64,000 nt of DNA from Candidatus Woesearchaeota archaeon (GTDB lineage Archaea; Nanobdellota; Nanobdellia; Woesearchaeales; ARS49). How positions within the stretch are numbered: the stretch's first letter is position 1; each line of letters begins with the position of its first letter. The position numbers were made by a program, and so were the translations under genes. The notes below the pieces were generated by a model that ran no database searches, was not told the DNA's origin, and saw nothing but the letters and a program-made list of their open reading frames with translations. The stretch lies in assembly GCA_017609645.1 (NCBI GenBank), contig JAFCDQ010000003.1, positions 148,846-212,845 on the forward strand, read 5' to 3'. Below are positions 12,287 to 39,785 of the stretch, in pieces.

Positions 12287-14811
12287 ATTAATGTACCATC
12301 TTCTGCATCTTCTGATTGTAAGTTATTTGCTGCCAGATTTCTTGAATCCATTGTGCTTGCCGGTCCTGCTCCTGCAAATGGCACACAATATTCACTTTTT
12401 GCACCTGGGAAATCTGCATCAGTCCATTGCATAGCTGCTGGAAGAAGTCCTCCTGTAATTGAACCAATTCCACCTAATATTGTTCTTGCCCATAAGTCTT
12501 CATAATCTTGAACAAATTCATCTATTTTTTCTTTAAACACTAAACAAATTTGATTATAATCTGTTGTGCTGTATTTGATAAAGTGTCTTGTTGCGCCTTG
12601 TCCTGGTTTGAGATATTTCCAGTCAGAGAACCATCTTGCTCGTCTTTCAGGGCCTCTGAATTCTACATTCACGTGCAAGTCTCTGTCTAATGGATTATTT
12701 ACTCTCATTTGTGCATTGTAAAGCCACATAGTGATTACTTCCATTTTCTTTATGTCGAGTTTTGGATCTGTGAAATCTACTTTTACACCGTCAATAAATG
12801 TCTGTTCTCCAAATAAATCTACTAATTCTTGTCTTGTTAATCCTTTGAATTCTATTGAGTCTGATCTCTCACCCACAAGTAAGGCAGCTCCCATTGGTGC
12901 TGCAGTGTCAGGCCCTTTTGTTAGCATGTAATTGCTTGGGCTTGAACTGATAAATCCTTCACATATATGTGATGTCCAGCATTCTTTTAATCCACCTATC
13001 ACACAGAATTTATCTTGAATCTCCTGCTTTCTCTTTGCAGCTTCTTGTAAATAATCAGAATCAAATATTAATGCGCTTAAGTATGCAAATCCCTTATATT
13101 GATTGAATGAATGTGTTAATACTCCTAGAAATCTCCACGTTCCCATTGCACTTATCTTTTTGCCTACAGAAACTGGCAAAGTTAAGTATATTGTTATCAT
13201 TTTTTGTTTGGCTTTTTCTAGCATTTTTTTCATTGCTGGAGTTAATCCTTTTTTTGCCAATAATGCATCATAAAGTTCATCAAATGTTAATGCTTTTCCT
13301 GTTGTTTTTGCTTTTGCTAATAAAGCATCTAATTCAGTATTCAATTTTTTTATAGACTCTCGTGATAATCCTTGCTCTTTTGCTGCATCTTCTAAGACTT
13401 TTTTCGCTTCCTCAAAAAGAGCAGTTGCAATTGCTAAATCTTCATCTGCTGTTGCTGAATCAAATCTTGCTATGTCTTCATTTTCCTCTGCTATTTCTAA
13501 CTTTACTTTATCTTGATCAAGCAATTTTTTTGCTTCTTCAATTGTATCAAGAGTTCGTTCTGCATCTGCTTTCATAACTTCTAATTTTGCTTTGTATTCA
13601 TTTTCCTTTGCTTGCTCTAGTTTTGTTTCTGCTTCATAAAAAGCTTGTTTTGCTTTTTGATATTCTTCTCCTGGTTTTGCTGTTGTTGTTGCTTCTTGTG
13701 CTTTGTCAAATTCAGTTAATGCCTTGGTATATGCAGTTACTGCAGTTTCATACGCTTTATCTGCTTCTATGCTTGCTAATGTATTTTGGTACAGTATTTG
13801 TGAATTTTGATATTTTGCTTCTGCATCTCTATATTCTTCTAGTACATAGTTATATACCTGCTCTGCTGATTCACTATATCGTTTTGCTTCATTTAGTTCT
13901 AACAGTTTTTTCCCTCTATCCATCTCTGCATTTTCTTTATCTTGTGTCGTTGCGTCTTCTATCACTTCCCATGCCAAAAGATCGTTGCTAACTTTTAGAT
14001 AGTCTTCGCCGATTTGTTCTACGGCTAAATCTATAAAATTTCCATCGTTATCAAGTGTATAAGACTTAAATGTGTCTTTGTCTTGCATTACATTAAAGAT
14101 TGTGTTCCATTTTCCTGCAATAAACACTTCTTCAGTACTTCCAATTTTGTTGCCTTGATAATATTGGTTTTTTATTTTTCTTTTTAATTGCCCTGTTTTT
14201 TTGTCAATTACTAACTCAACTTTTGAAACTTGATATCCTAAGTTTGCTTTTTTGTCTGCTTCTGATAATTCTTTATGCAGTTTACTTGCCTTGTCTAGAA
14301 CATATTCTTCTACTGTTCTTCTTAATTCACCATTAGCACTTAATTTGTTTTCAGTTCTTATTGTTGTTTTGTATTCTTTTAATCCTCTGCTCCATTCTTG
14401 TGTGCTTTTGCCCCAGTAATTTATGCTTCCATCTGCTTCAACTCTAAAAGAATCTGCTTTTTTGATATCTTCATATATATTTGAAGTTAGATATTTGTTT
14501 TGGACATATCCTTCAGCTTGTAAGTCTTTAGCACTTACAACGACATCTTTGATTTTGAGTTCTCCTTTTATTAAAGGAATAATTCTGTTATTCTTTGAAG
14601 AAACATAGTAGTCTGCACTACCTGGAGTTTGTTTCATTTTATCTGTCACTGTTTCTTTTGCAGGTTTAGGCGTGATTCCTATTTTATTATCTTCAATCAA
14701 CTTATTTACAGCTCCTTTTTCTGGAGCTTTAGTATCTGCTGCATAAGCTATAAAGCTACTTAAGAAAATCATGATTATCATTATTCCTATAAATCTTCTA
14801 GAATGGTTCAT
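12283..14811 (-). CDS. Large secreted protein (about 840 aa) with a central coiled-coil region of about 190 aa
   Basis: The track ORF extends to 14895. The in-frame Met at 14811 gives a signal peptide (MNHSRRFIGIMIIMIFLSSFIAYAA) and cuts the overlap with the upstream gene to 14 nt. The central segment is A/E/K-rich and heptad-like. Confidence 0.65.
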   Translation of the reverse strand: MNHSRRFIGIMIIMIFLSSFIAYAADTKAPEKGAVNKLIEDNKIGITPKPAKETVTDKMKQTPGSADYYVSSKNNRIIPLIKGELKIKDVVVSAKDLQAEGYVQNKYLTSNIYEDIKKADSFRVEADGSINYWGKSTQEWSRGLKEYKTTIRTENKLSANGELRRTVEEYVLDKASKLHKELSEADKKANLGYQVSKVELVIDKKTGQLKRKIKNQYYQGNKIGSTEEVFIAGKWNTIFNVMQDKDTFKSYTLDNDGNFIDLAVEQIGEDYLKVSNDLLAWEVIEDATTQDKENAEMDRGKKLLELNEAKRYSESAEQVYNYVLEEYRDAEAKYQNSQILYQNTLASIEADKAYETAVTAYTKALTEFDKAQEATTTAKPGEEYQKAKQAFYEAETKLEQAKENEYKAKLEVMKADAERTLDTIEEAKKLLDQDKVKLEIAEENEDIARFDSATADEDLAIATALFEEAKKVLEDAAKEQGLSRESIKKLNTELDALLAKAKTTGKALTFDELYDALLAKKGLTPAMKKMLEKAKQKMITIYLTLPVSVGKKISAMGTWRFLGVLTHSFNQYKGFAYLSALIFDSDYLQEAAKRKQEIQDKFCVIGGLKECWTSHICEGFISSSPSNYMLTKGPDTAAPMGAALLVGERSDSIEFKGLTRQELVDLFGEQTFIDGVKVDFTDPKLDIKKMEVITMWLYNAQMRVNNPLDRDLHVNVEFRGPERRARWFSDWKYLKPGQGATRHFIKYSTTDYNQICLVFKEKIDEFVQDYEDLWARTILGGIGSITGGLLPAAMQWTDADFPGAKSEYCVPFAGAGPASTMDSRNLAANNLQSEDAEDGTLI

Positions 14812-17800
14812 ATTCTGGTTCTCCTCCGTTTTCTCCAGACGCTGTTGTTTTATCATATTCTTCTGCCCATTCTTCCATTTCACCGCACCATTCATTTGTT
14901 ACCATTCCCATTTCATTTTGTCTGTTTGTCATTGCAGCAATACTTGCCCATGCTTCTCCTACTTCTGCAGCTACCCTATACAATGAGCATGCTGTATGAA
15001 TTTGTGCTGGTTTTGTTTCACAAGTCAAGTCACACCAGGTTCCAAAGAATGTTGTAACTATTGTCCATGGATTTGCTAGCATCTCACCTAGCATTTGACT
15101 GATTCCTTCAAAGAATTGTGAGAATGGTATTATGTCAAATAAGGGTCCGCCCCATACATATGCGCAGTTCATGTAATGATTTGTATCTTTGCAATAACTT
15201 ATTGGAACTCCTGTTTCTTTCCAGTCTTTTTCTAAGCAGGTTGCATATTTGCATTCTATTTGTGCTATTTTATTGATGTTTCTGATAATTCCTGGCAAAC
15301 AAAGACATGCCGTGCTTAAGTAAATATTATCTTTTATATTTGTATACATTCTCATGTTTCTTTCGCCTTCTCCGAGATTTCGCATGTTTCCTTGCATCAT
15401 TGCCCAGCCTGCTGTTAAGCTGCCACCTTGATCCATTATCCAGTCTTCAAATGCAGTGCACCATGGAGCTCCTCCTCCAACTAGATTTTCAATTCCCCAT
15501 TGGTCTTTTCCTCCGCTTGACTGACAATTTACTACAGCGCAGGCTTTGTCTAAGATTGTGTATAATGGAACTCCTAGTAATTTTTCTTCTTCAGGTATTA
15601 CTATTTTTTTGAATGAGGATTGTTTTCCTCCATATGCTCCGTCTATTTTTTCTTCTATTTCACATATTGGAGCTCTTGTGAGATAGATTGATTGGGATAT
15701 TGCAGGTCCAAAGACAGGAATGGCGCTTGTTGAGTCTTCCACGTTTCCTATTACTGCAACTAGTGCTGCTCCTGTTGATATTATGCTTGTTATGATTCCT
15801 TTCCATTCACATACTTCTTCTGCTATGTTAACTATTTCATTCATTGTTTCTAAAAGATCTGATTTAAGCACTCTTGCAGTATCCACAGCTTCTTTGATTG
15901 TTTTTTCTCTTCGTTCATAAATATCTCCAAGAGGCAAATCATAAAATTCTAAAAGAATGTCTACATCTTCTTCTTGAGGTGTTGTGTATATTGTTTGTTC
16001 TCTTTTTGAGTAGATTGTTAATGGACATGATAAGCTTAAATTATCTAGATAATAATCTCTTGCAGGAAGTTGTATCATAAAGTAGGGATTTGTGCTTCCT
16101 GGTGCTGTGTTTATTGTGCTTATATCGTCAATAAAGTTTGTTGTATTTCCAATACAATCATTTATTGATGTAGGTCCGATGATGCTTACTGTTTCTGCGC
16201 TTGAGCTTGTGCTTAAATCAACTTCACATACTACTCTTTGAGGTAGTTGTGATGTTGTTTTTCTGTCTATTGGCTGCGGCCTGCATGTTACATCACTTGT
16301 CCAGTATTTTCTTGCAGTGTCAACATCAAGTTCATATATTGTCATGTTGTATTCTGTTTCTGTTGTGTCATCAAATATGTCTGTGAATATGAAATTTATT
16401 GTTGCTTCTGCTGGTCCGCTTATGTCAACTACACTTTCAAACAAACATTCATCTAATCCTGTTATGCTGCTTAAGCTGCATTCAACAGCGTCTGAATCAC
16501 TTTCACCGCCTATTGCACTAAAGTCAGCAAAAGCATTTTCAAAGTTTTTGCTTTCTACAACAAATTGGACTGTGTCTCCTCTAACTGCTTCTCCTCCTAC
16601 ACCTTCTGGTCCTGGAATTACTATATAGTCTATTACTTTTGGTTTTAATGGTCCTTCGCTTTGATAAAATATTTCAAATTCTTGTCCAGAGTCTATTTTG
16701 TTTCCTAAATCATCTTGCGTGTCTGAGGATAATTCAAAATCATATATTCCTGAATTTGTTGTTAAGAAATTTGGATGTATGTTCCATTTGCAGTCCCATT
16801 TGTCAGCTGCAGTATTCTCGCACAAATCTGCTTGTAATTTTTTATCTGCAGATCTTCCTGTTAGATCATAAATGTTAAGATATGCTTTTCCTAGGTTCAT
16901 TCCTACTCCTGGATCACCGTCAGTATCTTTTTCTGAGAATATAATTGTGAAATAAGAATTATAAGCTGCTATTGGGTTTCCGTCTCCATCTACTGGCCCT
17001 TTTCCAATCTGAACAACAACAGGTGATTTATCATCTGCTTCTATATCAAAATCAAGTGTTCCTTGGCCTTGATTTCCTATGTTGTCTGTTGCTCTTACAA
17101 GTATTGTTCCAGAACTTTCTTCATCAACTTCCAGACCAGTCCAGTAATAAAAATTAGGAATTTGTTTATTTGAATAAGGAACTAATTGCACATTGTCATT
17201 AAATGGAGTTAGTTTTGCTTTTACTGTTGCATCTTCTATTCCGCTTAAATCAGTGATTTCTGCTCTGACACTTACTTGCTCGCTTCTTCCTGGCAGGACA
17301 TGTGTTATTTGTGCTCCTTCTGCATTTGTTAATGCTACTTCTATTGTTGGAGCTCCTTCATCTATGTAAAAATCATCACAAGCAGTATCTTCTCCGTCTA
17401 AGAAATCTCTAACAGTTGCGCATGCTCTTAGTTCATTTTCATCTCCATCATATATATAATCAAATCCTTCTGTTATTTCGCATTCTCCGGCCTCGCCTGT
17501 TATTGTTCCTACTTCTTCCATGTTAACATAGAATATGATTTCTTTTATTCCTGAGCATTCTGCTGATGCAGTTGTTGTGCCGTAATCTTTTGCCGTTACA
17601 GCAAAATTTACAGGGCCTGTTGTCATTTCTGGTTCTACATTAAAGCTTATTATTTCTGGGTCTGTATCATCTATGATTATTGTTTCTTCTAATGTTTCTC
17701 TTAAGATTGTATCTTGGTCATGAAGTGTTACTTTAAAGTCTATTTTTTCTTGTCCAATAAGATCTAATTCATCAGTATACGTGCAGGTGTAATAATCATC

Positions 17801-18055
17801 TGTTCCTTTTTGGCAAGTATCAAATGGCGCAAACACATTGCCTATCCAGAAGTTGACTCTTGATGGAAGTATGTTTTCATTTAACAGCATTGCTTTTGCT
17901 TTTATTGTCAAGGTATCTTTTGATCTTGCAAAGCCGTTTGCTTCATCTTCTCCGCTGTATCTGACCAGCTGCAAGTCAGATGTTTCTGCAATTGATATTG
18001 GAAGCAGAACTATCAGGATGATCATCATTATTGATATTTGTTTTTTTGAGTTCAT
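14798..18055 (-). CDS. Giant secreted protein (1085 aa) with acidic DxDxDG-like calcium-binding-type motifs and a Cys-rich C-terminal domain
   Basis: Signal peptide MNSKKQISIMMIILIVLLPISIAETS. Motifs DTDGDPGVG, PVDGDGNPI and DDTDPE are present. Its start overlaps the stop of the 711-aa pilin-like gene by 4 nt. Confidence 0.75.
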   Translation of the reverse strand: MNSKKQISIMMIILIVLLPISIAETSDLQLVRYSGEDEANGFARSKDTLTIKAKAMLLNENILPSRVNFWIGNVFAPFDTCQKGTDDYYTCTYTDELDLIGQEKIDFKVTLHDQDTILRETLEETIIIDDTDPEIISFNVEPEMTTGPVNFAVTAKDYGTTTASAECSGIKEIIFYVNMEEVGTITGEAGECEITEGFDYIYDGDENELRACATVRDFLDGEDTACDDFYIDEGAPTIEVALTNAEGAQITHVLPGRSEQVSVRAEITDLSGIEDATVKAKLTPFNDNVQLVPYSNKQIPNFYYWTGLEVDEESSGTILVRATDNIGNQGQGTLDFDIEADDKSPVVVQIGKGPVDGDGNPIAAYNSYFTIIFSEKDTDGDPGVGMNLGKAYLNIYDLTGRSADKKLQADLCENTAADKWDCKWNIHPNFLTTNSGIYDFELSSDTQDDLGNKIDSGQEFEIFYQSEGPLKPKVIDYIVIPGPEGVGGEAVRGDTVQFVVESKNFENAFADFSAIGGESDSDAVECSLSSITGLDECLFESVVDISGPAEATINFIFTDIFDDTTETEYNMTIYELDVDTARKYWTSDVTCRPQPIDRKTTSQLPQRVVCEVDLSTSSSAETVSIIGPTSINDCIGNTTNFIDDISTINTAPGSTNPYFMIQLPARDYYLDNLSLSCPLTIYSKREQTIYTTPQEEDVDILLEFYDLPLGDIYERREKTIKEAVDTARVLKSDLLETMNEIVNIAEEVCEWKGIITSIISTGAALVAVIGNVEDSTSAIPVFGPAISQSIYLTRAPICEIEEKIDGAYGGKQSSFKKIVIPEEEKLLGVPLYTILDKACAVVNCQSSGGKDQWGIENLVGGGAPWCTAFEDWIMDQGGSLTAGWAMMQGNMRNLGEGERNMRMYTNIKDNIYLSTACLCLPGIIRNINKIAQIECKYATCLEKDWKETGVPISYCKDTNHYMNCAYVWGGPLFDIIPFSQFFEGISQMLGEMLANPWTIVTTFFGTWCDLTCETKPAQIHTACSLYRVAAEVGEAWASIAAMTNRQNEMGMVTNEWCGEMEEWAEEYDKTTASGENGGEPEYEPF

Positions 18056-20187
18056 CTTAATACTGGTTTTAATAATGGCGCTTTAGCGATTGATTCATCT
18101 TTTATTTTGGTTATTTGGTCTAAATCTTCTATAAATCTTTGATCTTGAGGTACTTTGTCTATTGCAAGTGAAAAATATGTAAGCAGTAATTCTTCAGAAT
18201 CATATAGTTTATCAGGTGTGACTGTGAAGTCTATCTCCATCATAGTTGTTGGAAATGGATTTTCTGCATTAAATATCATGTCTTCTGGAGGTAGGTCATA
18301 CGATCTTCGTTTAGTTATAGGAATAAGTCCAAATATTTTTTCTGGTTCTATATATCTTGTGTCTTTTGGTATTACTATGTTTTTTGTTAAAAAGCCTGTT
18401 ATGGTGATTTTGTAGTTTCCTGGGATTAATGTTATTGTGTTTTCTTTTCCTCCTGATAAATCTGTTATTGCTGCAAAATCATCTTCAAACTGGCCTGGTT
18501 CTTTTGTAATCATAACCATCAATTCTTCTTCTTTATCTACTGGATGAAACTCGGTTGTATCTAGTTTCCATTTTCTTACTCCTTCTTTTTCATACAAATA
18601 TTTTCTGGCATTTACTTTGAGTTCTTTTTCTGGATACATTGTTATTGCAAGTTTTCCTTCTTTATCTCCTGTTGTTAATGGAGCATATATTGTCATGTAT
18701 CCTTGTCTTTTGATTTCTAATAATCCGTTCAAGCATCTTGGGAATTTAGAATTAAATATTCCTTGTGCTGTTGTTCCTAGCGCACATGCTGTGTCTCCAC
18801 AAGTGTAGATTATTGATGCATCATCTATGAATTCTTTTGTTGCATAATCTTTCAACTCGATATTTATTTCTCCGCTTGTTCTTTGGTTTGCTTTGCAGAA
18901 TAGGTTAGAGTCAAGATTTTTTAATGCTGCTGCCAGTTTTGTGTTTGATGTGAATGGATTATTATTTCTTAGGTTTGCTTCTAAGAAGAATTTAAAGCTG
19001 TATCCTTTGCCGCCTAGTGCATTTGGATTTGTTATCTCAACTAATACAGGTATGCTTATGTCATATGCAAAATTGTATTTTTGTATTCCAAATATGAAGA
19101 AGCTTTCTGATAATAATGAATTGTCAGGCCTGCATAATTCTCCGTCACAGTTTAAGTCTATGTAGGGTTTCCACCAGTCAAGATAATAAAATCTGACTTC
19201 TAAATCAGGATGAGGCGTGTCCATTGGTATTAAGAACTGTCTGTTGTACATTAGTTCATATGCTTCTGCATCTCTCACACCAGGTGGAGAAGGAACATAG
19301 TTGAAGTTTCTTGTTCCGCTTAATTGTAATAATGGAATATAGCTTGTGAGCATTTGAGTGATTTTCTTTTGTACTTTACTTTTTAACCAAAAGGTTTCTT
19401 TGCCTGTTTCAAATGTCATGTCAGATACAGGAGGCAGTGCATTTTTGTCAAGCTCAGAGAATGAATAAACCAGTTCTTTTATTGCATTTTCCAAGAAGGT
19501 GTATTCTATTTCTATGTTTGTTATGTCTGTTGCTAAATCATATATTTCTTTTAGGTTTACATTCACTGTTGCTGCAAAGTTAGCTAAGTCTTGTGTTGTT
19601 TTGTCTTTTGTTGCTTCTAACTCCCAATCTAATGAAATTAGAATGTCATTATCGCGGATGATTAATTCCACGTCAGGTCTTGATTTTTCTTCAACAACAT
19701 AGCCTTGTTCTCTTAATCCTGCAAAATTGTTGACGCATGCTGCAATGTTTTCTTCTACATAATCTGTTAATTGTTCTTCTATGTTTATTTTTCTTCCTGA
19801 GTATAGTTCAGGTCTTTTTGTTTCAAATGCACATTTGTCCTGGCATTTGTTTGGACTTTGCATATACCACCAATATGGTGATACAGGACCTTTCCCTCCT
19901 AATGATACTGCATCTGCTTCTGTTGGCGCATAAGGATTTTGTGCATAGTCAGGCAGGATATATCCTCCTTGCGAGCCTAATAAGTCAAGTCCATCTATTG
20001 TTGTTTTCTTGATGCAGAGCAGCACATAACTTGTTACAGGATCTGCTTCTGCGATTGGCACTACAGGAGTTATTGCTTTTCTTTCTATTGGTTTTTCCGC
20101 AACCTGAACAAAATAGATGACTAAAGCTATTGTGATTAATAGAATTATTCCTATTATAATGAACAATGTTACTTGTCCTTTTCTCAT
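18052..20187 (-). CDS. Large (711 aa) protein with a class III (type IV prepilin-like) signal peptide; paralog of 9250..11241
   Basis: N-terminus MRKGQVTLFIIIGIILLITIALVIYFV. A Shine-Dalgarno-like AGAGGAAAC precedes the ATG. It shares the N-terminal domain with the 663-aa paralog. Confidence 0.7.
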   Translation of the reverse strand: MRKGQVTLFIIIGIILLITIALVIYFVQVAEKPIERKAITPVVPIAEADPVTSYVLLCIKKTTIDGLDLLGSQGGYILPDYAQNPYAPTEADAVSLGGKGPVSPYWWYMQSPNKCQDKCAFETKRPELYSGRKINIEEQLTDYVEENIAACVNNFAGLREQGYVVEEKSRPDVELIIRDNDILISLDWELEATKDKTTQDLANFAATVNVNLKEIYDLATDITNIEIEYTFLENAIKELVYSFSELDKNALPPVSDMTFETGKETFWLKSKVQKKITQMLTSYIPLLQLSGTRNFNYVPSPPGVRDAEAYELMYNRQFLIPMDTPHPDLEVRFYYLDWWKPYIDLNCDGELCRPDNSLLSESFFIFGIQKYNFAYDISIPVLVEITNPNALGGKGYSFKFFLEANLRNNNPFTSNTKLAAALKNLDSNLFCKANQRTSGEINIELKDYATKEFIDDASIIYTCGDTACALGTTAQGIFNSKFPRCLNGLLEIKRQGYMTIYAPLTTGDKEGKLAITMYPEKELKVNARKYLYEKEGVRKWKLDTTEFHPVDKEEELMVMITKEPGQFEDDFAAITDLSGGKENTITLIPGNYKITITGFLTKNIVIPKDTRYIEPEKIFGLIPITKRRSYDLPPEDMIFNAENPFPTTMMEIDFTVTPDKLYDSEELLLTYFSLAIDKVPQDQRFIEDLDQITKIKDESIAKAPLLKPVLR

Positions 20188-22198: not shown

Positions 22199-22675
22199 TT
22201 AATTAGGGAATATATCCCTATTTCTTGTTGGAATACAGACTCTATCTGCAGAGTCATACCAATCTAAAGTCTGATGCCCAATATCTGCTAGATAACAAAG
22301 CACATCTGAGTTTATTCTTCCTTGATATAATGGAAGATTATATTGTCTTAGCGTTTGTCCTCTTTGTGCTTTATCTTCTACAACATAACATTTTATTTGA
22401 TCTTGCGGAATTATTTGTTTATCAGACCTTCTATTCCCCCATATAGTTCTACATTGAGGAATATGTTCTACTCCGCCTCCTATAATAATGTAATGAGCTT
22501 GATCATATGACATTCCGCCTGTTTCTCCGACATAGGGTTTGTTATATGTCATGCCCGCATACCATGATTCTCCTGTTGTACTTGCTCTTGTAAATAGCAA
22601 GACTAATCCTATAATGGCTATGATTGTTATAACACCTAAAATAACTAATCCTAATCCTACTTGACCTTTTTTCAT
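22199..22675 (-). CDS. Small (158 aa) pilin-like protein with a class III signal peptide
   Basis: MKKGQVGLGLVILGVITIIAIIGLVLLF. A perfect Shine-Dalgarno GGAGGT (22682-22687 on +) lies 6 nt upstream of the ATG. Confidence 0.65.
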   Translation of the reverse strand: MKKGQVGLGLVILGVITIIAIIGLVLLFTRASTTGESWYAGMTYNKPYVGETGGMSYDQAHYIIIGGGVEHIPQCRTIWGNRRSDKQIIPQDQIKCYVVEDKAQRGQTLRQYNLPLYQGRINSDVLCYLADIGHQTLDWYDSADRVCIPTRNRDIFPN

Positions 22676-24691: not shown

Positions 24692-26302
24692 TTAATTTCC
24701 TTTCACTAAATAATTTCCATCTTTGTTTATCACAGTATTTACTGTTTTAATATCAAAAGGATAATATTTTACTATTTTAAGATTCATTTTTGCGGATACT
24801 TTAGTAGCACCGATTGTTGTTCTGCTTCCTGCATATCTTCTGACAAAATTAAAGAAGTTTCCTTGATCTTCTTTTCCTCCTTCAGCTGTGCTGCAAGAGT
24901 CTAAAAAGATAACTGCATCTTTTGCTAACATAGAAAGATATGTGCCAATATCTGTATCAGTTATATCTAATCTTTGATTTTCTTCACGTCCGCCATACAT
25001 TATTCCTTTTTTTGATCCATGTCCTGAAAGAATAAGTAATTTTGTGTCTTTATTTTTCATAGCTTCTATTGTTTCATATACTTGTTTTTCATTTTCTGCG
25101 ATTGCGAGTTTAATATCATAATGTTTCTTTATTGAATTAAAAAATTTAACCATCGTGTTCATTTCAAAAACTTTCATTGAAGAATGTGTTTTTCCTTCAC
25201 TATAAGGCAAGATCCAAACTGCATTTGGTTTTTCTGTATCTTTAAAATTTAATATTTCATCTGTTGTTAATCCAAGTTGTGCAAATCTATAAATTCTCAT
25301 TCCATCATAACCTTTTTTAGCTAATTTTTCTGCATATCCAAACAAATCATAATCTTCTTTTTCTAAAACTTTATCAAAACCATAGAATTTTTCAACTTTT
25401 CTAAATTTGGATATTTGTTCTGAATTTGTAAAAACAGGATTTCCTTTATTGTCTTTAAATTCTAATAATTTCTTTGCAAATTCATAAGTACCTTTTGCTC
25501 TTTTAAATTCGGTTAATTCACTCTCATCAACAAATATTTGTTCTCCTTTTTCATTTTCTAAAGTTAACATTTTTTCTGCATATTCTTTAGTTCCTCCAAC
25601 TGAAAAATAATTTGAAATATAATGATCAAACAAAAGATTTCCTTTTTTTGTTTTTATTTTCATTAATTCAAGAAGTTTTTCATGTGAAATGTTTGCTTTA
25701 TAAAGTTTAATTATGTCTCCAGACAGATCGAGAGAAAACAACTTTGTTCCATCTGATTTTTTTGATTTGGCAAATCGCATTACATAATCTACAGGAACTT
25801 TTGCCTTTGATAATTCGCATATTTCAGAGTTAAAAAATGTAAAATATGAACGATTTCCCTTTTTATCTCTCACTTTTTTAAGTTTAATGGCATAATCAAC
25901 AGGAACTTTAGCTTTATATAAATCATAAATAAAATCTTCAAAAATAAATAATCTATCTTCCTCTTCATCTCTCGCATTTAATAATTTTTTAGCATAAGAA
26001 ACATCCATATCTCCTGGAAATTTGTATCCGTCAATAATTATATCCTTTAATTTTGGTTTTTCCTTTTCTACTTTACCTTCCAATGTCTGCGGTTGACTCT
26101 GTGTTTGAGAAATAGTTTGTATTTGTGGTTTTGTCTGTACTTTCTTTTTTCTTTTTGTTTGCACTTCTTCTTTTGTTTGAGAATGATAAACTGGCTCTAT
26201 AGGGATAATTTCAGTTGTATTACTACAACCTGTCAAAACACTCCAAGCTAATACAGCTGTTGCAAATATTCCACCAACTAATCTTCCTAACTCCATAATC
26301 AC
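24692..26302 (-). CDS. Lipoprotein with six or more internal repeats of about 35 aa and a C-terminal CHAT/caspase-like (clan CD) domain
   Basis: Lipobox LTGC at the end of the signal peptide; repeats of the form LYKAKVPVDYAIKLKKVRDKKGN..F. The C-terminus has KLLILSGHGS...(about 40 aa)...VIFLDSCSTAEGG, the His/Cys dyad spacing typical of CHAT/caspase-fold enzymes. Confidence 0.6.
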   Translation of the reverse strand: MIMELGRLVGGIFATAVLAWSVLTGCSNTTEIIPIEPVYHSQTKEEVQTKRKKKVQTKPQIQTISQTQSQPQTLEGKVEKEKPKLKDIIIDGYKFPGDMDVSYAKKLLNARDEEEDRLFIFEDFIYDLYKAKVPVDYAIKLKKVRDKKGNRSYFTFFNSEICELSKAKVPVDYVMRFAKSKKSDGTKLFSLDLSGDIIKLYKANISHEKLLELMKIKTKKGNLLFDHYISNYFSVGGTKEYAEKMLTLENEKGEQIFVDESELTEFKRAKGTYEFAKKLLEFKDNKGNPVFTNSEQISKFRKVEKFYGFDKVLEKEDYDLFGYAEKLAKKGYDGMRIYRFAQLGLTTDEILNFKDTEKPNAVWILPYSEGKTHSSMKVFEMNTMVKFFNSIKKHYDIKLAIAENEKQVYETIEAMKNKDTKLLILSGHGSKKGIMYGGREENQRLDITDTDIGTYLSMLAKDAVIFLDSCSTAEGGKEDQGNFFNFVRRYAGSRTTIGATKVSAKMNLKIVKYYPFDIKTVNTVINKDGNYLVKGN

Positions 26303-26374
26303 TATAAAGTAGCTATTTTATATATAAATCTTTCTCTCCCAAAGCTTTAAAAAACAATAAAACATCAATAACTC

Positions 26375-26923
26375 ATGCTTCCAAAAATAAAAGAGGACAT
26401 AATCTCAGTATTAAAAAAAGCAATTCCTGCTTTGAAAAAAGAGGATTTTACTGAATTAAGTGATTTAAGTAATAGAACTATTCATGATGCAAGTATTTTT
26501 CAAGATGCTGATTCAATCTCTTGTGCCGTTCTTATGTATTCTTTGTCAAAGTTTTGCCAGCAATGCAAAGAAAAAGATATCTCTCTTCCAAATTTTGCCG
26601 CACAATTAGAAAAAGCTTTAGATCTCTTAAAAAAAGATAATATTAAACTTTACGAAAATAAAATTAAAGAGATTTTCAAAGTTATGAAAAAATATGATGA
26701 AAAAGTTAATATTTATTTTGAAGAAGCAATCAAGCGTGCAAAAATCAAGAAAGCAAGCTGGATGCATGAACACGGCATTAGTATTGCAAGAACAGCTGAA
26801 CTTCTAGGAGTGAGCCAGTGGGATTTAAGAAATTATGTTGGAGTAACTAAAGTTCCTGACAAAAACTTAGGCGGTTTAACAGCAAAAAAGAGATTAGAAG
26901 TAGCGAGGGACTTATTCAAATGA
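26375..26923 (+). CDS. UPF0175 (COG2886)-type antitoxin-like protein with an N-terminal extension of about 110 aa
   Basis: The C-terminal ISIARTAELLGVSQWDLRNYVGVTKVP matches the UPF0175 helix-turn-helix signature. Its stop overlaps the start of the downstream PIN gene (ATGA). Confidence 0.5.
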   Translation: MLPKIKEDIISVLKKAIPALKKEDFTELSDLSNRTIHDASIFQDADSISCAVLMYSLSKFCQQCKEKDISLPNFAAQLEKALDLLKKDNIKLYENKIKEIFKVMKKYDEKVNIYFEEAIKRAKIKKASWMHEHGISIARTAELLGVSQWDLRNYVGVTKVPDKNLGGLTAKKRLEVARDLFK

Positions 26924-27609
26924 AAACTTTAGTTTTTGATACAGGACCAATAATCTCTTTAGCACTAACTAATTTGCTTTGGCTTTTGCCTGAATTAAAG
27001 AAAAAATTCAAAGGAAGATTCTTAATCCCTCTTTCTGTAAAAAAAGAACTTGTTGACAAACCTTTTCACGGGAAAAAATTCAAATTAGAAGCTATTCAAT
27101 TAATGCAGTTGATTGAAAATAAAGTCTTGGAAGTTATTGATGAGGATAAAGTTTCTAAAAGAGCTAAAGAATTAATTGAAGAAGCAAATAAGATTTTCAA
27201 AGGTTTTCATCATAATATTAACATAATTCAAGAAGGGGAGATGGAAGCCGTTGCTATGGCAGAATTATATAATGCAGATGGCATTGTTATTGATGAAAGA
27301 ATTACTAGAACTTTAATTGAACATCCTCCTGGTTTGCAAAAACACATGGAAAGAAAACTGCACACAAGACTTTCTGTAAACAAACAATTATTAGAAAAAC
27401 TCAGTGATCAATTAGATGATGTTTATATCATTAGAAGCACAGAACTTGCTGCAATTGCTTTTGAAAAAGGATTATTAAACAAATATATTATTCCAAGAAA
27501 AGTCACTAAAAGAGATGTGTTAGACGCCACATTATGGGCATTAAAGCTTAATGGCTGTTCTATCAGAAGCGACGAAATAAGAAAAATCAGTCAAGAAGTT
27601 GTTAAATGA
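26920..27609 (+). CDS. PIN-domain protein (COG2405-like putative toxin or nuclease)
   Basis: N-terminal LVFDTGPIISLALTNLLWLL carries the first PIN Asp; acidic residues recur in QEGEMEAVAMAELYNADGIVIDE. 229 aa, translationally coupled to the upstream UPF0175-like gene. Confidence 0.6.
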   Translation: MKTLVFDTGPIISLALTNLLWLLPELKKKFKGRFLIPLSVKKELVDKPFHGKKFKLEAIQLMQLIENKVLEVIDEDKVSKRAKELIEEANKIFKGFHHNINIIQEGEMEAVAMAELYNADGIVIDERITRTLIEHPPGLQKHMERKLHTRLSVNKQLLEKLSDQLDDVYIIRSTELAAIAFEKGLLNKYIIPRKVTKRDVLDATLWALKLNGCSIRSDEIRKISQEVVK

Positions 27610-27643: not shown

Positions 27644-29950
27644 TTATTTGGAATTAGAATCTTTTTTCTCTATTTTTTTTAAAGTTCTCTCTTTTCCAAG
27701 TTGAGCTAACATATCTTCAGATCCTATTTTTAGAGCTGTTTCATAAGAAGTAAGTGCTTCGTCTAATCTATCTACTCTTTGTAGAACATCTCCTCTAAGA
27801 ATATAAGGCAATGCATCATCAGGATATAACTCTATTGCTCTTTCATAAAACTTAAGTGCTTCTTCCAATTTTCCTGATCTTTCTAAAATACTTCCTTCCT
27901 TACAATAAGGAATTCTTGTTAGAATTTTGGTTTTGTAATCTTCATAATCATCACATTCAGTATTTTCATTTTCTTCTTTTTGTTGTTCTAGTTTTCTTTC
28001 AACTTTTCTTTTAAAAACTTCATAAAATTCTTTTTTCCTTGGCTTTAATTCAATTGCTTTATCATAATATTTATTTGCTTCTTCTAGCTTACCCAATTCT
28101 TCTAACGCCTCTCCTTTACTACAATAATAATGTGCTTTTTCTGGATCTAGGTCTATTGCTAAATCATACTGTTCAATGGCGTCTACTAGTTTACCTAATT
28201 TCCTCAATGCGTCTCCTTTACTACAATAATAATGTGCTTTTTCTGGATCTAGGTCTATTGCTAAATCATACTGTTCAATTGCATCTTTGAATTCTCCTAA
28301 TTCTTCTAAAGCCACTCCTTTTGTAAAATAAAAAAAAGAATCATTTGGTTCAATCTCAATTGCTTTATTATAAAATTCAATTGCTTTTTCAGGATTATCT
28401 TCTTCAATTTCTTGGCCTTTAAGCAAAAAAGAAAAAGCATCTTTTTCTCTCTCAATATTAGAACTTTCACCCCTCTTTTTGAAATCCAAATCTATTACCT
28501 CTTCAGAAACTTTTTGTTCTAATAAAGATGAGTCATCATTTTTTGTTAAAATATCTAAATTAATTAAAGCATCAATAAAATCATCTATCGTTTGATATCT
28601 ATCTTCAGGATAAAATTCTAATCCTTTTTCAATTACTTTTATTATTTTTCCATCAACTTTTGCTTTTTTCAGTGCATTGTAAATTCCCTGAGGACCTGGG
28701 CCTATATTTACTCCTAATGGTTTGCCTGTTAATAACTCATAAAATATTTTGTTTAAAGAAAAGATATCGCTTTTTTCTGTTGGTTTTTTTCCATTTAATT
28801 GTTCAGGAGACATATATAGAAGTGTCCCTTCAAATTCTTTGCTTTGCACAGTCATTATAGACTTTAATGTTTCTGGATTTGACAAAATTTTAGCAAGGCC
28901 AAAATCACAAACCTTAACTTCTAAGTCATCATTTACAAGAATGTTTTCCGGCTTTATATCTGCATGAACAACCCCTTTAGAATGCGCATAAGACAATGCA
29001 TTAGCGACTTGACTTATGATTTTTATTGTTTTTTCTTGGGTAAAATCATTTATCTTTTCTCTTAAATTTGTTGAATTCTCAAAATATTCCATCAATAAGT
29101 ATGGAAATCCCTCTCTTTGAACATGTTCAACAAGAAGTATATTCTCATGCGTTCCTAAACATTTATGCGCCTCAGCTTCTTTAAGAAGTTCGTAACTAGC
29201 ATTAGGTTTTGGGAACTTCATAGTTTTTAAGATATTAGTTTCAGTTTTGACTTTCCAAACAACACCAAAACCCCCTTCACCAATTTTCTCTTCTAAGGTA
29301 TAACCATCAATAATTTGTCCAGAGCTTAAATTTAAAGCTCTTCTTGAGCTTCTTTTAGTTTTAGAAGAAGCAATAAGTTCTATAACATTCAGTTTGCTTT
29401 CTTTTTCAACACTTTCAATATACTTCTTAGCCCAGTTTTCTATTTCTTTAGGAGCTCTCTTAGAGGTTCGTAATTCTGCTTGTAAATTTAATTTAAGTTC
29501 TTCTGTTAATTTATCAAGATTATCAAAAGAATATTTAATCCATCTCTGATTACGCAGATCGGTTGCTTTTTTTAAAGCCTCATCTAAGTCTTGTGAAATA
29601 AACAATATTGGTTTTTTTTGACCAATTAAGAAACCTGTTTCAAGCATCACATTTTCATTTATTTTTTGGCCTTCTTTTTTACTTAAACTCATATCAGAAA
29701 TTCCCATAGTGGCGTACTCTGCAGCAAGTTGGATATCTTCCCAGATAGAACCTTCCCCTAATAAACGCGTAGCACTAAGCACATTTATGCTATATTCCCC
29801 TAAATTTAAACTAGCGTCTTCAATTGCTTTTAGAATTTCTTCAAAATCCTCATTATATTCCTGAGCTACAAATATATAAGGTATTTCTAGCTGAATTTTT
29901 TCTTCTAGTTTAAGTAAATCAAAATACTTCTGTCGAACAACGTTTCCCAT
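27644..29950 (-). CDS. Multidomain signalling protein: N-terminal TIR-like / nucleoside 2-deoxyribosyltransferase-like domain, Hanks-type Ser/Thr protein kinase, C-terminal TPR repeats
   Basis: Kinase motifs GEGGFGVVWKV, HADIKPENILV and DFGLAK. The N-terminus has NENVMLETGFLIGQKKPILFI, which resembles the NDT/COG4271 TIR-like motif. The C-terminus has 34-aa TPR units (AIEQYDLAIDLDPEKAHYYCSKG...). Confidence 0.85.
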   Translation of the reverse strand: MGNVVRQKYFDLLKLEEKIQLEIPYIFVAQEYNEDFEEILKAIEDASLNLGEYSINVLSATRLLGEGSIWEDIQLAAEYATMGISDMSLSKKEGQKINENVMLETGFLIGQKKPILFISQDLDEALKKATDLRNQRWIKYSFDNLDKLTEELKLNLQAELRTSKRAPKEIENWAKKYIESVEKESKLNVIELIASSKTKRSSRRALNLSSGQIIDGYTLEEKIGEGGFGVVWKVKTETNILKTMKFPKPNASYELLKEAEAHKCLGTHENILLVEHVQREGFPYLLMEYFENSTNLREKINDFTQEKTIKIISQVANALSYAHSKGVVHADIKPENILVNDDLEVKVCDFGLAKILSNPETLKSIMTVQSKEFEGTLLYMSPEQLNGKKPTEKSDIFSLNKIFYELLTGKPLGVNIGPGPQGIYNALKKAKVDGKIIKVIEKGLEFYPEDRYQTIDDFIDALINLDILTKNDDSSLLEQKVSEEVIDLDFKKRGESSNIEREKDAFSFLLKGQEIEEDNPEKAIEFYNKAIEIEPNDSFFYFTKGVALEELGEFKDAIEQYDLAIDLDPEKAHYYCSKGDALRKLGKLVDAIEQYDLAIDLDPEKAHYYCSKGEALEELGKLEEANKYYDKAIELKPRKKEFYEVFKRKVERKLEQQKEENENTECDDYEDYKTKILTRIPYCKEGSILERSGKLEEALKFYERAIELYPDDALPYILRGDVLQRVDRLDEALTSYETALKIGSEDMLAQLGKERTLKKIEKKDSNSK
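28101..28269 (-). repeat. Identical 67-nt segment repeated at 102-nt (one TPR unit) spacing inside the kinase gene
   Basis: 28101-28167 equals 28203-28269 exactly; both encode TPR units, which suggests recent unit duplication or gene conversion. Confidence 0.8.
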
Positions 29951-35038: not shown

Positions 35039-36100
35039 TCAAATAACTAAAACTTCTCCTAACTTTCCATCCTGAACCATCAATACCTTCATTGGAAGTT
35101 CTATCTTCTTCTCTTCATCATATTTTACTCCTTTAATTGCTAAATCATGTGAATTGACATAATCAATCAAGTCTAGTATATTTGATTCTGCATTGTTGCA
35201 AAGAACTTCTGCAAACATATAACCATATGCTGAGTAAACATTTGGTTCTTCTGAATATTTTTCTTTAAATCCTGATTGAAATGCAGGATCATATTCAATC
35301 TTTGCTATGCCTGTAAAATACACTCCTTCTAAGATATCTTCAAACTCTTTTACTTGGTCTTCTTCAACATCAGATCCTATTATTATCATGCCTTTATACT
35401 CTCTTTCTTTCAATTCTTTTACGATCTTGAAATTGACTGACGGTTTCATTGTTGAAACAAAGACAAATTCTGGATTTTTCTCAATTATTTTTGTTGTTAT
35501 TGTATAAAATTCACTATCTTTTACATTTATTTTACTTACGTCTAACAGATTAAGATTAAATTCTTCTGAAATCTTTGAAAGAAGTTCATTTATTGATTCT
35601 CCTACCGCATCATTTGCTAAAATAGAGTAAAAACTCTTCTTATTTTGCTTAACAGGAAATTCAAATGATTTCTTTAACTGATAATAAGGGCTTGGATAAT
35701 TACATATCATGTTTTCATATTCTAAGAATGAATCAGAACACATTGACATTGCTATGAAAGTATATCTTTTCTTATCTCCTTGTGCAGAATACAGTGTTTC
35801 TGAAGCCGCAGGTCCAAAAGGTCCATAAAAAGTATTAATTCCATCTACGCTAGACAATTTCTTGAAAGCATTGATTGTCTCTTTTGGCTGTCCTTTGTCA
35901 TCTTCAATAACAAATGCACAATCCTGCTCTGAACTGTAGAGATTAATCCCTTTAACTACATCATTTCCAAAGTTAGCAAAATCTCCGCTTAAAGGCAAGA
36001 TTGCTCCTATTTTTACACCTTGTGAGATAGGTAAAAGTAAAATAACACATAAAATCGCTATGATTAATAAAATTCCAATAATCCAAAGTTTTTTAGCCAT
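35039..36100 (-). CDS. LivK-like periplasmic substrate-binding protein, membrane-anchored
   Basis: N-terminal TM anchor followed by GVKIGAILPLSGDFANFG, typical of type I PBPs of the Liv family. Confidence 0.7.
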   Translation of the reverse strand: MAKKLWIIGILLIIAILCVILLLPISQGVKIGAILPLSGDFANFGNDVVKGINLYSSEQDCAFVIEDDKGQPKETINAFKKLSSVDGINTFYGPFGPAASETLYSAQGDKKRYTFIAMSMCSDSFLEYENMICNYPSPYYQLKKSFEFPVKQNKKSFYSILANDAVGESINELLSKISEEFNLNLLDVSKINVKDSEFYTITTKIIEKNPEFVFVSTMKPSVNFKIVKELKEREYKGMIIIGSDVEEDQVKEFEDILEGVYFTGIAKIEYDPAFQSGFKEKYSEEPNVYSAYGYMFAEVLCNNAESNILDLIDYVNSHDLAIKGVKYDEEKKIELPMKVLMVQDGKLGEVLVI

Positions 36101-36195
36101 GTGTAAAAAAAGTAAATAAAGGTATAAATAAGTATTCGTAAAAATTTACTAAGAAAAGTAGAAAAACGAACAAATCTTTGCTAATTTTAGTAAAA

Positions 36196-36203
36196 TTTAA
36201 ATA
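36196..36203 (+). promoter_or_regulatory. Candidate TATA box (TTTAAATA) 23 nt upstream of the ATG at 36227
   Basis: Same 8-mer and spacing as upstream of the genes at 1143 and 49035. Confidence 0.3.
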
Positions 36204-36226
36204 AGAATTACTTTTCTTAGACTAAT

Positions 36227-37177
36227 ATGAAATTAAAACTAGATAAAATAGATAAGAAGCTGTTGAGTTATTTATTTCATAACTTCAGAAAACCTATAAC
36301 TCAGATTGCTAAGAATTGCAGGATTTCTAGAGAGCAGGCAGAATATAGAATAAAGAAATATGAAAAATCAGGCTTGATTAACAGATATTTAACAGCTTTT
36401 AATTTATACATGTTTGGATACAGAGAACATTATACTTTGAGGTTGAGAGTTAAGAATCCTAAATCAAAAAATTTAGACAAATTATGCAATAAAAATATAT
36501 TAATATTCACCAGACTTCATTCTTTTGGTGAATGGGATTATATTTTGGCAATTTTTGCAAAAAATAAAACAGATTTCCTTAATTTCATTTCAACATTATT
36601 TAATTCATGGAAAGAAGACCTTCTTGACTACAGCATTTTCGAACCAACAGAAGTGCATTTTTATCCTCTAAAGATATTTGGTAAAAGAGAAGACGACAAA
36701 ACTCTGAGTTTTAAAGAAGATAAAGAGATTAAATTTGATGTTTTAGATAAAAAGCTCATGACAATTCTTGCTAAGAATGCTGATATCAAAATTGTTGATT
36801 TGGCAAGAAAACTCAAAGAAAAAGTAAAGACAATTAGTTACAGATTAAAAAGATTAGAGAAAAATATCATCGTAGGATATAGAATTTTCCTGGATTTAAG
36901 CAAAATAGGTTATAACCTAGCACAATTATCAATTAAATTAAATGATTTGTCAGATTCAACAGTAAGACAATTAAGACAATACGCAAAGCAAAGAGAAAGC
37001 GTGCATGCATTTAATTTAGGTATAGGAAAATATAACACAATGTTTCAAATTATTTATCAAAATCCTAAAGAAGTTAATGAAGAGATAAATAAATTAAAAG
37101 AAATATTCAAAGAAAAGATCATAGAATTTGATGTGACTTTTATTGATAAAGAATTAAGTCCCACATTATATCCTTAA
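36227..37177 (+). CDS. Tandem-duplicated Lrp/AsnC-family transcriptional regulator (two complete HTH plus RAM modules in one 316-aa chain)
   Basis: Both halves carry the AsnC-type HTH pattern (KIDKKLLSYL...IAKNCRISREQAEYRIKKYEKSGLI and VLDKKLMTILAKNADIKIVDLARKLKEKVKTISYRLKRLEKNIIVGY). Confidence 0.8.
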   Translation: MKLKLDKIDKKLLSYLFHNFRKPITQIAKNCRISREQAEYRIKKYEKSGLINRYLTAFNLYMFGYREHYTLRLRVKNPKSKNLDKLCNKNILIFTRLHSFGEWDYILAIFAKNKTDFLNFISTLFNSWKEDLLDYSIFEPTEVHFYPLKIFGKREDDKTLSFKEDKEIKFDVLDKKLMTILAKNADIKIVDLARKLKEKVKTISYRLKRLEKNIIVGYRIFLDLSKIGYNLAQLSIKLNDLSDSTVRQLRQYAKQRESVHAFNLGIGKYNTMFQIIYQNPKEVNEEINKLKEIFKEKIIEFDVTFIDKELSPTLYP

Positions 37178-38251
37178 CGGAACAATCTCTCCATCCTTTA
37201 TCTGCCACCACATGAACTTTCTTATCCCATCTCCTTTCTCGTCAATACTAAATATTCCACTCACACCTTCTCTATTCTCAATGTCATAAAGATATTCTTT
37301 CAAACAATTTGAATCTTCACACTTCTTTAAAGCATCATATAAAACCATGTAAGTATCATATCCTAAAGCTCCATACATCTCTTCTGGAATCTTTTCTCCG
37401 TATACTGCTTCATAATCAGCTAAGAATGTCTGCATTTTAGAAGAATCTAAATCATACTCATAAGTTATCACAATTAATCCTTCAGCAGTATCTCCCATTA
37501 AATTTTTGAGAACTTGTCTAGAAAAGAATGCTTCATTTCCTATTAATTGAGTTTCAATTCCTAACTCCTTTGCTTGTTTTACCAATAAAGTTGCTGAGAT
37601 GGGAGATTGTACTAAGAATAAAATAGCATCGGGATTTGTATTTTCTATTTTTGAAAGTTGGAGTTTAACATCTTTATCTCCTGAATCAAAATATTCAATC
37701 CCTGTAACCTCCTCTTCATAAACTTTTACAAAAGAATCTTTCCATCCGACAGCATAATCTGTATTTTCTACAATTATTCCTATCTTGCTATTTTTTTTAA
37801 TCATATTTGCTGTTTTCTCTGCAAATAAATCTGCTGAAGAAGATATTCTAAAAACATGATCTCCTGCGTCTGATATAGCAGGAGCACTTGCTACAGAAGA
37901 TATCAAGATTTTTTCTTCAGTTAATGGTGCAATAGCTAATGTTGATCCTCCGCAGATTGCTGAAACAATAATATCTACATTATTAACATCTAATAATTTC
38001 TTAGCAGCTGTAACTCCTTCTTTCGGTATGCATTTGCCGTCTTCAAATATAACTTCAATTTCTTTGCCATCTATTGAATGAAACTGTTTATTAGCAAGTT
38101 CAAATGAATTTTTAATATAAACTCCTGGATTTGCTACAGGACCGGTTAAAGGCCCAATAAAACCTATTTTGATTGTTTTCTCTTCAGGAACACAACTGAT
38201 TAAAAACAATGTTAAGATCATTAAACATAATATTTTCTTCATTTTAACCAC
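37166..38251 (-). CDS. LivK-like substrate-binding lipoprotein
   Basis: Lipobox LISC followed by KIGFIGPLTGPVANPG; 361 aa. Confidence 0.75.
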   Translation of the reverse strand: MVKMKKILCLMILTLFLISCVPEEKTIKIGFIGPLTGPVANPGVYIKNSFELANKQFHSIDGKEIEVIFEDGKCIPKEGVTAAKKLLDVNNVDIIVSAICGGSTLAIAPLTEEKILISSVASAPAISDAGDHVFRISSSADLFAEKTANMIKKNSKIGIIVENTDYAVGWKDSFVKVYEEEVTGIEYFDSGDKDVKLQLSKIENTNPDAILFLVQSPISATLLVKQAKELGIETQLIGNEAFFSRQVLKNLMGDTAEGLIVITYEYDLDSSKMQTFLADYEAVYGEKIPEEMYGALGYDTYMVLYDALKKCEDSNCLKEYLYDIENREGVSGIFSIDEKGDGIRKFMWWQIKDGEIVPLRI

Positions 38252-38349
38252 CTAGAAATAGTGTTATCGACGAGATATTTAAGTTTATGTTGTAGAAAAT
38301 CTACTACAATAAAGAAAGATTTATATATCTACTCCTCATATTATCTAGT

Positions 38350-39081: not shown

Positions 39082-39785
39082 GCATCCAGCACTTTCTTAT
39101 TATTTTGTATTTGTTTAGGTTTGCCCGACGCTATAACTTCTCCTGCATCTAAGACAAATATATGATCTACTAAATCCATAACGAAGTTCATGTCATGTTC
39201 AATCAAAAACACTGTTTCTCCTTTTTTGTTTAAATTTTGAATTATTTTTTTTATTTGTTTCCTTAACTTTGGATTAACTCCAGCTACTGGCTCATCCAGC
39301 ATCAATAAATCATGTGGTTTGGCTAAAGCAACGCCTAAATCTAATAACTTCCTTTGTCCATATGATAAATCACTTCCTAAAGTATGTAATGGCTTAGTCA
39401 ATCCTATCAAATTCATTATTTCTTTTATTTTCCATTCAACATCTTTTTCTTTTGCAAACATTGATTCATCATTTGTTGACAAAGCCATCATGAAATGATC
39501 TTTTATTGTTAAATTCTTGAATAATCGAGGATCTTGAAATGTTCGAGAAATTCCCATTTTAGCGACTTTATTAGGTCTAAATTTATCAATTCGTTCTTGT
39601 TTAAATTTTATAAATCCTGAATTTGGTTTTATCAATCTTGAAATAACATCAAATAATGTTGTTTTTCCAGATCCATTTGGACCTATGAGCGCTGTAATTT
39701 TATTTTTCTTAATTCCTAAACTACATTTATTTAATGCTCTTACTCCTCCAAAGTTTTTAGTTATTTCATGCGCTTCCAATATCAT
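39066..39785 (-). CDS. livG: Branched-chain amino acid ABC transporter ATP-binding protein (LivG-like)
   Basis: Walker A GPNGSGKTT, signature LSYGQRK and Walker B LLMLDEP. Confidence 0.85.
   Translation of the reverse strand: MILEAHEITKNFGGVRALNKCSLGIKKNKITALIGPNGSGKTTLFDVISRLIKPNSGFIKFKQERIDKFRPNKVAKMGISRTFQDPRLFKNLTIKDHFMMALSTNDESMFAKEKDVEWKIKEIMNLIGLTKPLHTLGSDLSYGQRKLLDLGVALAKPHDLLMLDEPVAGVNPKLRKQIKKIIQNLNKKGETVFLIEHDMNFVMDLVDHIFVLDAGEVIASGKPKQIQNNKKVLDAYLGE

Follow-up and report, generated by a model that had tools for sequence, protein, structure and literature searches.

We analysed a stretch of 64,000 nucleotides, hereafter the window, from Candidatus Woesearchaeota archaeon (assembly GCA_017609645.1, contig JAFCDQ010000003.1, positions 148,846 to 212,845 of the forward strand) and, within it, a gene on the minus strand at 24692..26302, for which a first-pass annotation had proposed a secreted lipoprotein joining tandem repeats to a caspase-like C-terminal domain. 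The results favour, with a probability that we put at roughly two in three, an extracytoplasmic cysteine peptidase of clan CD, divergent and DUF4347-like, which is exported, probably anchored to a lipid, and equipped with an alpha-solenoid that most likely serves as a binding module. The protein consists of five parts, namely a signal peptide, a linker, six repeats, a degenerate helical stretch and the C-terminal domain.

The C-terminal domain and its family

In the C-terminal domain, the segment KLLILSGHG, which contains His428, and the segment VIFLDSCSTAEGG, which contains Cys470, place the two predicted catalytic residues 42 positions apart; both codons were verified, and the distance agrees with the approximately 40 residues reported initially. 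A word-indexed search returned only five homologs, in which GHG and SC-TAEGG are invariant, and their alignment was used to seed an exhaustive HMMER search against 1.84 billion cluster representatives, which retrieved 1,289 proteins at E<=1e-3, 155 of them at E<=1e-30. Conservation was measured on the 153 domain matches found in the best 150 proteins, all of them representatives that share no more than 50% identity. The His is retained in 151/153 matches and the Cys in all of the 149 non-gap positions, and the Gly following the His is kept as often as the Pro of the FKDTEKPN motif at the start of the domain (149/153 for both). Moreover, the His is invariant in alignment A3 and the Cys in alignment A2.

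This pattern bears on the idea of a protein that binds or adheres without any catalysis, in which a pseudoprotease of the type of the Raptor caspase-like domain acts as a scaffold and the repeats mediate attachment. Pseudoenzymes normally lose their catalytic residues. Since the dyad, together with the Gly, is near-perfectly conserved in about 150 divergent representatives, as expected of an active site under selection, we regard such a scaffold as very improbable.

The structure prediction that had been suggested as a check was carried out with AlphaFold2 on residues 310-536, using a 148-sequence alignment, and gave a mean predicted local distance difference test score (pLDDT) of 89.9 and a predicted template modelling score (pTM) of 0.90. 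The model runs from strand b1 (AVWILPY) through helices to b2 (DIKLAIA), a helix, b3 (KLLILSG) leading into His428, a hairpin, b4 (AVIFL) leading into Ser and Cys470, a helix and b5, with the strands that precede the two predicted catalytic residues at amino acids (aa) 420-426 and 464-468, respectively. In this model the domain is an alpha/beta/alpha sandwich with a central, mostly parallel sheet, in which the His(-Gly) ends one hydrophobic strand and the Cys ends the next, the His coming first. A His after one strand and a Cys after the next is the defining order of clan CD. The confident model, its caspase-like strand order and the conservation of the two residues support a predicted clan CD caspase fold with a His428/Cys470 dyad, and the arrangement first recognised from the two motifs is borne out.

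The assignment to a family fared differently, as CHAT, C13 and C25 had been put forward and the nearest family is instead DUF4347 (PF14252). When 127 family members were scanned against Pfam (matches at E<=0.01), DUF4347 was found in 44 of them, with a best E of 1e-8, whereas CHAT (E 6.7e-4), Peptidase_C14 and Peptidase_C25 were each found in one. The DUF4347 matches cover approximately positions 10-130 of the 164 of the profile and span the region of the His and the Cys. Among the members checked individually, the DUF4347 cut-off of 24.6 bits was exceeded by P0085 (35.6), P0010 (30.1), P0096 (26.6) and P0018 (25.4). Because the relatives match this profile and the window protein does not, the link to DUF4347 runs through the family rather than through this sequence. 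On these profile matches, we place the family next to DUF4347, as a divergent clade most of which is unannotated, and not within CHAT, C13, C14 or C25.

Structural comparison of the domain model led to the same neighbourhood. The solved DUF4347 protein Tce1 of Pseudomonas aeruginosa (9qpe_G) scored highest (11.9), followed by SAVED-CHAT (10.5), Craspase TPR-CHAT (9.2), gingipains R and K (8.7 and 8.6), caspase-9 (8.4) and legumain (8.2); C11 enzymes, GPI8, metacaspases, separase and the protease domains of TcdA and RtxA ranked below legumain. Foldseek, run on the same model, returned SAVED-CHAT (E 5e-5) and then caspases-3/7/11 and the TcdB protease domain.

These comparisons were also used to weigh two other activities that a clan CD domain could have. 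The first is that of an autoprocessing module, like C80 of MARTX and TcdA/TcdB toxins, which would make a single self-cut, for example in the tether formed by the linker, and so free the repeats or the whole protein. We consider this unlikely, as C80 domains score below CHAT and gingipains, the basic flap that binds inositol hexakisphosphate is missing from the domain and no such cofactor is present outside the cell, and the linker is not conserved among the relatives, many of which have none. The second is that of a transpeptidase or ligase, which would link surface proteins, on cleavage of a sorting signal, to an acceptor in the cell envelope. Precedents exist in clan CD, namely the GPI8 transamidase and the legumain-type ligases, and PorU has been proposed as another. 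Here, however, matches to structures of the GPI8 or ligase type score no better than those to plain hydrolases, the nearest neighbours (Tce1, CHAT and gingipains) are hydrolases or putative hydrolases, and neither a candidate sorting signal nor a conserved partner gene was found, so that a transpeptidase appears rather improbable.

Export signal, tether and repeat array

The open reading frame (ORF) described initially starts with GTG at 26302 and encodes 536 aa, and residue numbers in this text are counted from that codon. The database copy of the protein (P0001, from NCBI and JGI, on a 316-kb contig) has 534 aa and starts two codons downstream, at ATG 26296. In Archaea, the usual position of the TATA box for a leaderless transcript is 25-32 nt upstream of the start codon. 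Since the TATA-box-like element TTTATATA sits at this spacing, ATG 26296 was taken as the start, and TTTATATA may be regarded as the candidate archaeal promoter of a leaderless mRNA. The coordinates of all features are collected in Table 1.

The N-terminus is composed of a basic n-region (MELGR), the hydrophobic core LVGGIFATAVLAWSV and the lipobox LTGC, and the boundary MELGRLVGGIFATAVLAWSVLTGC/SNTT fits the lipobox pattern [LVI][ASTVI][GAS]C; a scan of NCBIfam added a weak lipoprotein-signal match and nothing more. Five paralogous substrate-binding proteins of the Peripla_BP_6 family (branched-chain amino-acid type) are encoded at 35039-46901, and four of them carry a lipobox (LISC, LAGC, LAAC, VTAC) at the end of the signal peptide. 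Moreover, a 2025 survey reported predicted lipoproteins to be widespread in DPANN, and likewise the lipidation enzyme AliA, the latter with gaps (PMC12462473). The lipoboxes of these four proteins and the frequency of lipoproteins in DPANN make lipid anchoring of the protease credible, and Cys26 is probably lipid-modified, as judged from the motif. The Thr/Gln/Lys-rich linker, 68 aa long, follows the lipobox as had been noted, and presumably acts as a flexible tether. In the model of aa 85-345 described below, pLDDT falls under 50 only at aa 85-88, the end of the linker.

The first-pass annotation had counted six or more repeats of about 35 residues. We delimited six units (aa 95-127, 128-163, 164-199, 200-233, 234-265 and 266-299), spaced by 32-36 aa, to which the degenerate units of aa 300-352 can be added. 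The repeats escaped a BLASTP self-comparison of the protein, and tests based on hidden Markov models (HMM) were needed. In a leave-one-out procedure, in which each unit was scored with an HMM of the other five and compared with 200 shuffles of itself, all six units outscored all of their own 200 shuffles, by a wide margin for R1 (33.7 bits against a shuffle maximum of 4.6) and R5 (22.8 against 7.3) and by a narrow one for R2 and R3. An iterated repeat HMM found 244 units in 84 of the 152 representative family proteins, with 1-9 units per protein; the core consensus of the family repeat is GGTIEYAKELASIKDKEGNPIF, and the profile built on these 84 other members picks up five of the six units of the window protein. 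The repeat register is also visible in an alignment of the repeat regions of 17 proteins.

This alignment was used for an AlphaFold2 model of aa 85-345, which reached a pLDDT of 86.9 and a pTM of 0.81. Each modelled unit comprises an 8-residue helix (e.g., VDYAIKLK), a tight, beta-bridged turn on KDxxGNxxF and a helix of 6-10 residues, and the pTM of 0.81 indicates that the repeats would form a packed alpha-solenoid and not beads on a string. From about aa 320 onward, three helices abut the protease core in the model with a pLDDT of about 95, and aa 310-319 are of low confidence. The array appears novel, as was first claimed: no Pfam family was found for the repeats in this protein or in repeat-rich relatives, where scattered short matches to Phage_TAC_13 and DUF2430 are the only ones, and no close solved structure for the array was found. 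In the sequences examined, including the ORFs of ten related genome loci, the repeats always occur in proteins that have the protease domain; when the repeat alignment was used in a word-indexed search, four family members came back, too few to judge whether repeats exist without the protease. Another family member, of 706 aa, is encoded in a metagenome-assembled genome (MAG) of Woesearchaeota (L003, 7362-9482, plus strand); it has a lipoprotein-like N-terminus, AGC-GGGSS, and about 12 variant repeats, I.PEW[VI]..[IM].FKD..GN.IY, which the repeat HMM missed, therefore the repeat family is broader than the profile.

Table 1. Features of the protease gene, with positions in the window and residue numbers counted from GTG 26302
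Feature	Position	Strand	Remark
Coding sequence of the 534-aa protein	24692..26296	-	ATG 26296 to stop 24692-24694
TATA-box-like element TTTATATA	26321..26328	-	candidate; 25-32 nt upstream of ATG 26296; sequence reading
Signal peptide MELGRLVGGIFATAVLAWSVLTGC	26225..26296	-	basic n-region, hydrophobic core, lipobox LTGC
Predicted lipidated Cys26 codon	26225-26227	-	lipobox cysteine
Thr/Gln/Lys-rich linker, 68 aa	26021..26224	-	low complexity; sequence composition
Six tandem repeats of ~34 aa, aa 95-299	25406..26020	-	HMM tests and model
Degenerate helical units, one or two, aa 300-352	25247..25405	-	bridge the repeats to the catalytic domain
Predicted clan CD (caspase-hemoglobinase fold) domain, DUF4347-like, aa 353-536	24695..25246	-	begins with the conserved FKDTEKPN motif
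Predicted catalytic His428 codon	25019..25021	-	GHG, right after strand KLLILSG
Predicted catalytic Cys470 codon	24893..24895	-	DSC, right after strand AVIFL

Proposed function and genomic setting

From the ORF, the repeats, the conservation of the dyad, the predicted fold with its structural neighbours and the lipobox, taken as direct evidence, we infer export, lipidation, catalysis and a binding role of the repeats. The protein would be exported by the Sec pathway by means of its N-terminal signal peptide, and probably lipidated at Cys26, so that the flexible Thr/Gln/Lys tether of about 70 residues would hold it on the outer face of the membrane. There, the six 34-residue helix-turn-helix repeats would form the alpha-solenoid, most likely a module that binds a substrate or a partner, and the C-terminal domain would cleave peptide bonds by the His428/Cys470 dyad, with Gly429, which follows the His, helping to form the oxyanion hole, a role known from other enzymes of clan CD. 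Immediately behind strand 1 lies Glu369, at a position where about 90% of the relatives have Asp, and Asp468, at Cys-2, is replaced in the relatives by Asn, Tyr or Phe or is kept as Asp. Metacaspases and paracaspases have acidic residues of the S1 pocket at the positions matching Glu369 and Asp468. By analogy, a preference for a basic P1 residue (Arg or Lys) could be envisaged, which is speculative. Candidate substrates could be the surface proteins of the organism itself or those of a host cell.

Several results weigh against a peptidase of this kind. To begin with, no curated family threshold was passed: the sole Pfam match of the protein, to Peptidase_C14 (E 0.0025), extends over aa 384-479 and spans both motifs, but its 18.0 bits lie below the cut-off of 21.4, and neither CHAT nor DUF4347, the latter even at E<=10, matched this protein in Pfam. 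The Pfam check suggested at the outset thus gave a sub-threshold hint of clan CD through C14, whereas CHAT (PF12770), which it named, was not found. Searches of the PDB were empty to E<=10 for the protein, for the 148-sequence profile and for the relative scoring best with DUF4347, therefore the link to solved structures is by fold only; the evidence for the fold rests on a predicted model, in which the His-Cys geometry and the S1 pocket are putative. As for the anchor, a lipobox-like motif is present in 17/152 family members (~11%), and the close homologs P0003 and P0004 do not have a Cys at the lipobox position. Most family members have a plain signal peptide or an N-terminal membrane anchor; the trait that the predicted N-termini conserve across the family is export, and the mode of anchoring is not conserved. 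In addition, ten genome loci and two metagenome contigs contained no conserved functional neighbourhood that would point to a substrate. Finally, a 2026 study, the sole structural and functional work on DUF4347 that was found, described Tce1 and Tce2 as putative cysteine proteases, aligned His186/Cys240 of Tce1 with the dyad of TcdB, found that the toxicity of Tce2 in yeast was lost on changing Cys to Ser, and demonstrated neither activity nor toxicity for Tce1 (PMC13323088). In the literature found, peptidase activity has been demonstrated for no protein of the DUF4347 type.

Among the species-representative genomes, those with a relative of the protein mostly carry the label Nanoarchaeota, Woesearchaeota or Nanoarchaeia, the exceptions being two MAGs labelled Methanosarcinales and one labelled Fibrobacterota, and the contigs of two close homologs bear archaeal genes (Hjc, a family-B DNA polymerase and HTH_10). 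The only gene order shared among the loci, HIT-HIT-gene-PolB, was seen in four closely related genomes and is absent from the window; it is a housekeeping synteny among relatives. A role in the processing of surface proteins, which had been proposed for the gene, is a possibility to which conserved gene context gives no support. Two further loci may be recorded. In Woesearchaeota UBA525 (L010), two paralogs of the protease family lie in tandem at 7761-8597 and 8720-10027 on the plus strand, with no detectable repeats, and their contig has 56% G+C, far above the other loci. The metagenome contig L011 encodes P0003, the homolog of 857 aa, and just upstream of it (4871-6709, plus strand) a reverse transcriptase (RVT_1 and HTH_40), an integrase of the phage type, a toxin resembling ParE and a nuclease of the phospholipase D type, which suggests that this homolog belongs to a mobile or defence island or borders on one.

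The window itself has a G+C content of about 30%, and archaeal genes flank the protease gene, namely those for the ribosomal protein S6e, a peptidyl-tRNA hydrolase of the PTH2 type and the threonyl-tRNA synthetase. These genes, taken with the labels of the relatives, make a DPANN archaeon the most likely source. No Rfam match, tRNA gene or rRNA gene was found in the 64 kb, nor was a second copy of the protease domain or of the repeats elsewhere in the window. The gene had been placed next to a surface-protein locus. Such a locus is indeed present, as a cluster of giant and pilin-like proteins at 2405-20187, but it is not directly adjacent: it lies about 4.5 kb away, and S6e, PTH2, a small pilin-like ORF and the threonyl-tRNA synthetase intervene. 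The cluster contains very large ORFs of 2282, 663, 297, 870, 1085 and 711 aa, all co-oriented on the minus strand and all with an N-terminal hydrophobic segment, and is probably a surface or pilus-like apparatus of the DPANN kind. Pfam recognised nearly nothing in it: the 2282-aa protein gave a weak match to Big_13 and Glucodextran_B, and the 297-aa ORF, which has about eight hydrophobic segments, a weak one to RIFIN, below the cut-off (E 1.7e-4). Three ORFs on the minus strand, at 9250-11241, 18052-20187 and 22199-22675, begin with MRKGQ(L/V)T.FII.G or MKKGQVGLGLVILG; this MRKGQ/MKKGQ start is the pattern of class III signal peptides (type IV pilin or archaellin-like), which are cut by the prepilin peptidase. 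Two of the three are oversized for pilins (663 and 711 aa), and none of them had a Pfam match.

On the other side of the protease gene, and divergent from it, two ORFs of 182 and 229 aa overlap by 4 nt at stop and start (26375-27609, plus strand); neither had a significant Pfam match, the first contains a weak helix-turn-helix-like stretch, and the pair might be a small regulator or a module resembling a toxin-antitoxin system. Past this pair, about 1.3 kb upstream of the protease gene, a 768-aa protein encoded at 27644-29950 on the minus strand combines a Ser/Thr protein kinase domain of the eukaryotic type (E 2.9e-43) with multiple tetratricopeptide repeats behind it. As for the Peripla_BP_6 genes, they flank ORFs at 39782-41538 with hydrophobic N-termini, possibly permeases, and for a small genome the set devotes much coding capacity to the uptake of amino acids or peptides.

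A more specific version of the proposed peptidase would make it an interaction enzyme typical of DPANN: the solenoid would bind a polymer of the envelope, be it that of the host or that of the cell itself, and the tethered protease would cut proteins of the surface layer or others exposed there. The cuts would open or reshape the zone in which episymbiont and host touch, or else would supply scavenged peptides to the amino-acid ATP-binding cassette transporters encoded nearby. We hold this to be a long shot; if true, a clan CD protease would for the first time be assigned to cell-cell interaction in Archaea, and DUF4347 would gain a first physiological role outside type VI secretion.

Comparison with known systems

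Clan CD proteases (caspases, metacaspases, CHAT, gingipains, legumains) are known as molecular switches and virulence factors, and to our knowledge almost no work has been done on those of archaeal surfaces. What we describe is a new architecture within a known fold class, in a sizeable uncharacterised family that is mostly archaeal. The analysis delimits this family to about 1,300 representatives, with genome-placed relatives mostly in DPANN, an intact dyad, links to the DUF4347 profile and a private repeat module. It provides a domain of unknown function with a catalytic hypothesis that can be put to the test, names a candidate surface protease in organisms whose way of life requires contact with other cells, and adds a new type of helical repeat that domain databases could take up. 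Current views are not overturned; the result is moderately surprising, and its use lies in annotation and in guiding experiments.

The closest known system is Tce1, encoded by PA0256, which was mentioned earlier as an uncharacterised DUF4347 protein (PMC8262886). A cargo effector of the H3 type VI secretion system of P. aeruginosa and putatively a cysteine protease, Tce1 (PDB 9qpe, chain G) shares 15% identity with the window protein. Tce1 is a bacterial effector loaded in the cytoplasm and has an unrelated N-terminal domain, whereas the window protein is archaeal, predicted to be exported by Sec, and has a lipobox, a repeat array and the FKDTEKPN motif before strand 1.

The likeness to CHAT (PF12770; SAVED-CHAT 8tl0 and Craspase TPR-CHAT 7y83) is structural only. 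The CHAT proteins among the matches are cytoplasmic, are activated by nucleotide signals or by CRISPR complexes, and with 478-812 residues in the whole chain are several times larger. With respect to Peptidase_C14, gingipains (C25), legumain (C13) and clostripain (C11), all curated cut-offs were missed and the window domain is smaller; it shows no sign of a p20/p10 processing linker, of Ig-like domains such as gingipains have, or of a sorting domain at the C-terminus. As regards the repeat array alone, the closest known systems are the alpha-solenoids of TALE/BurrH and MTERF.

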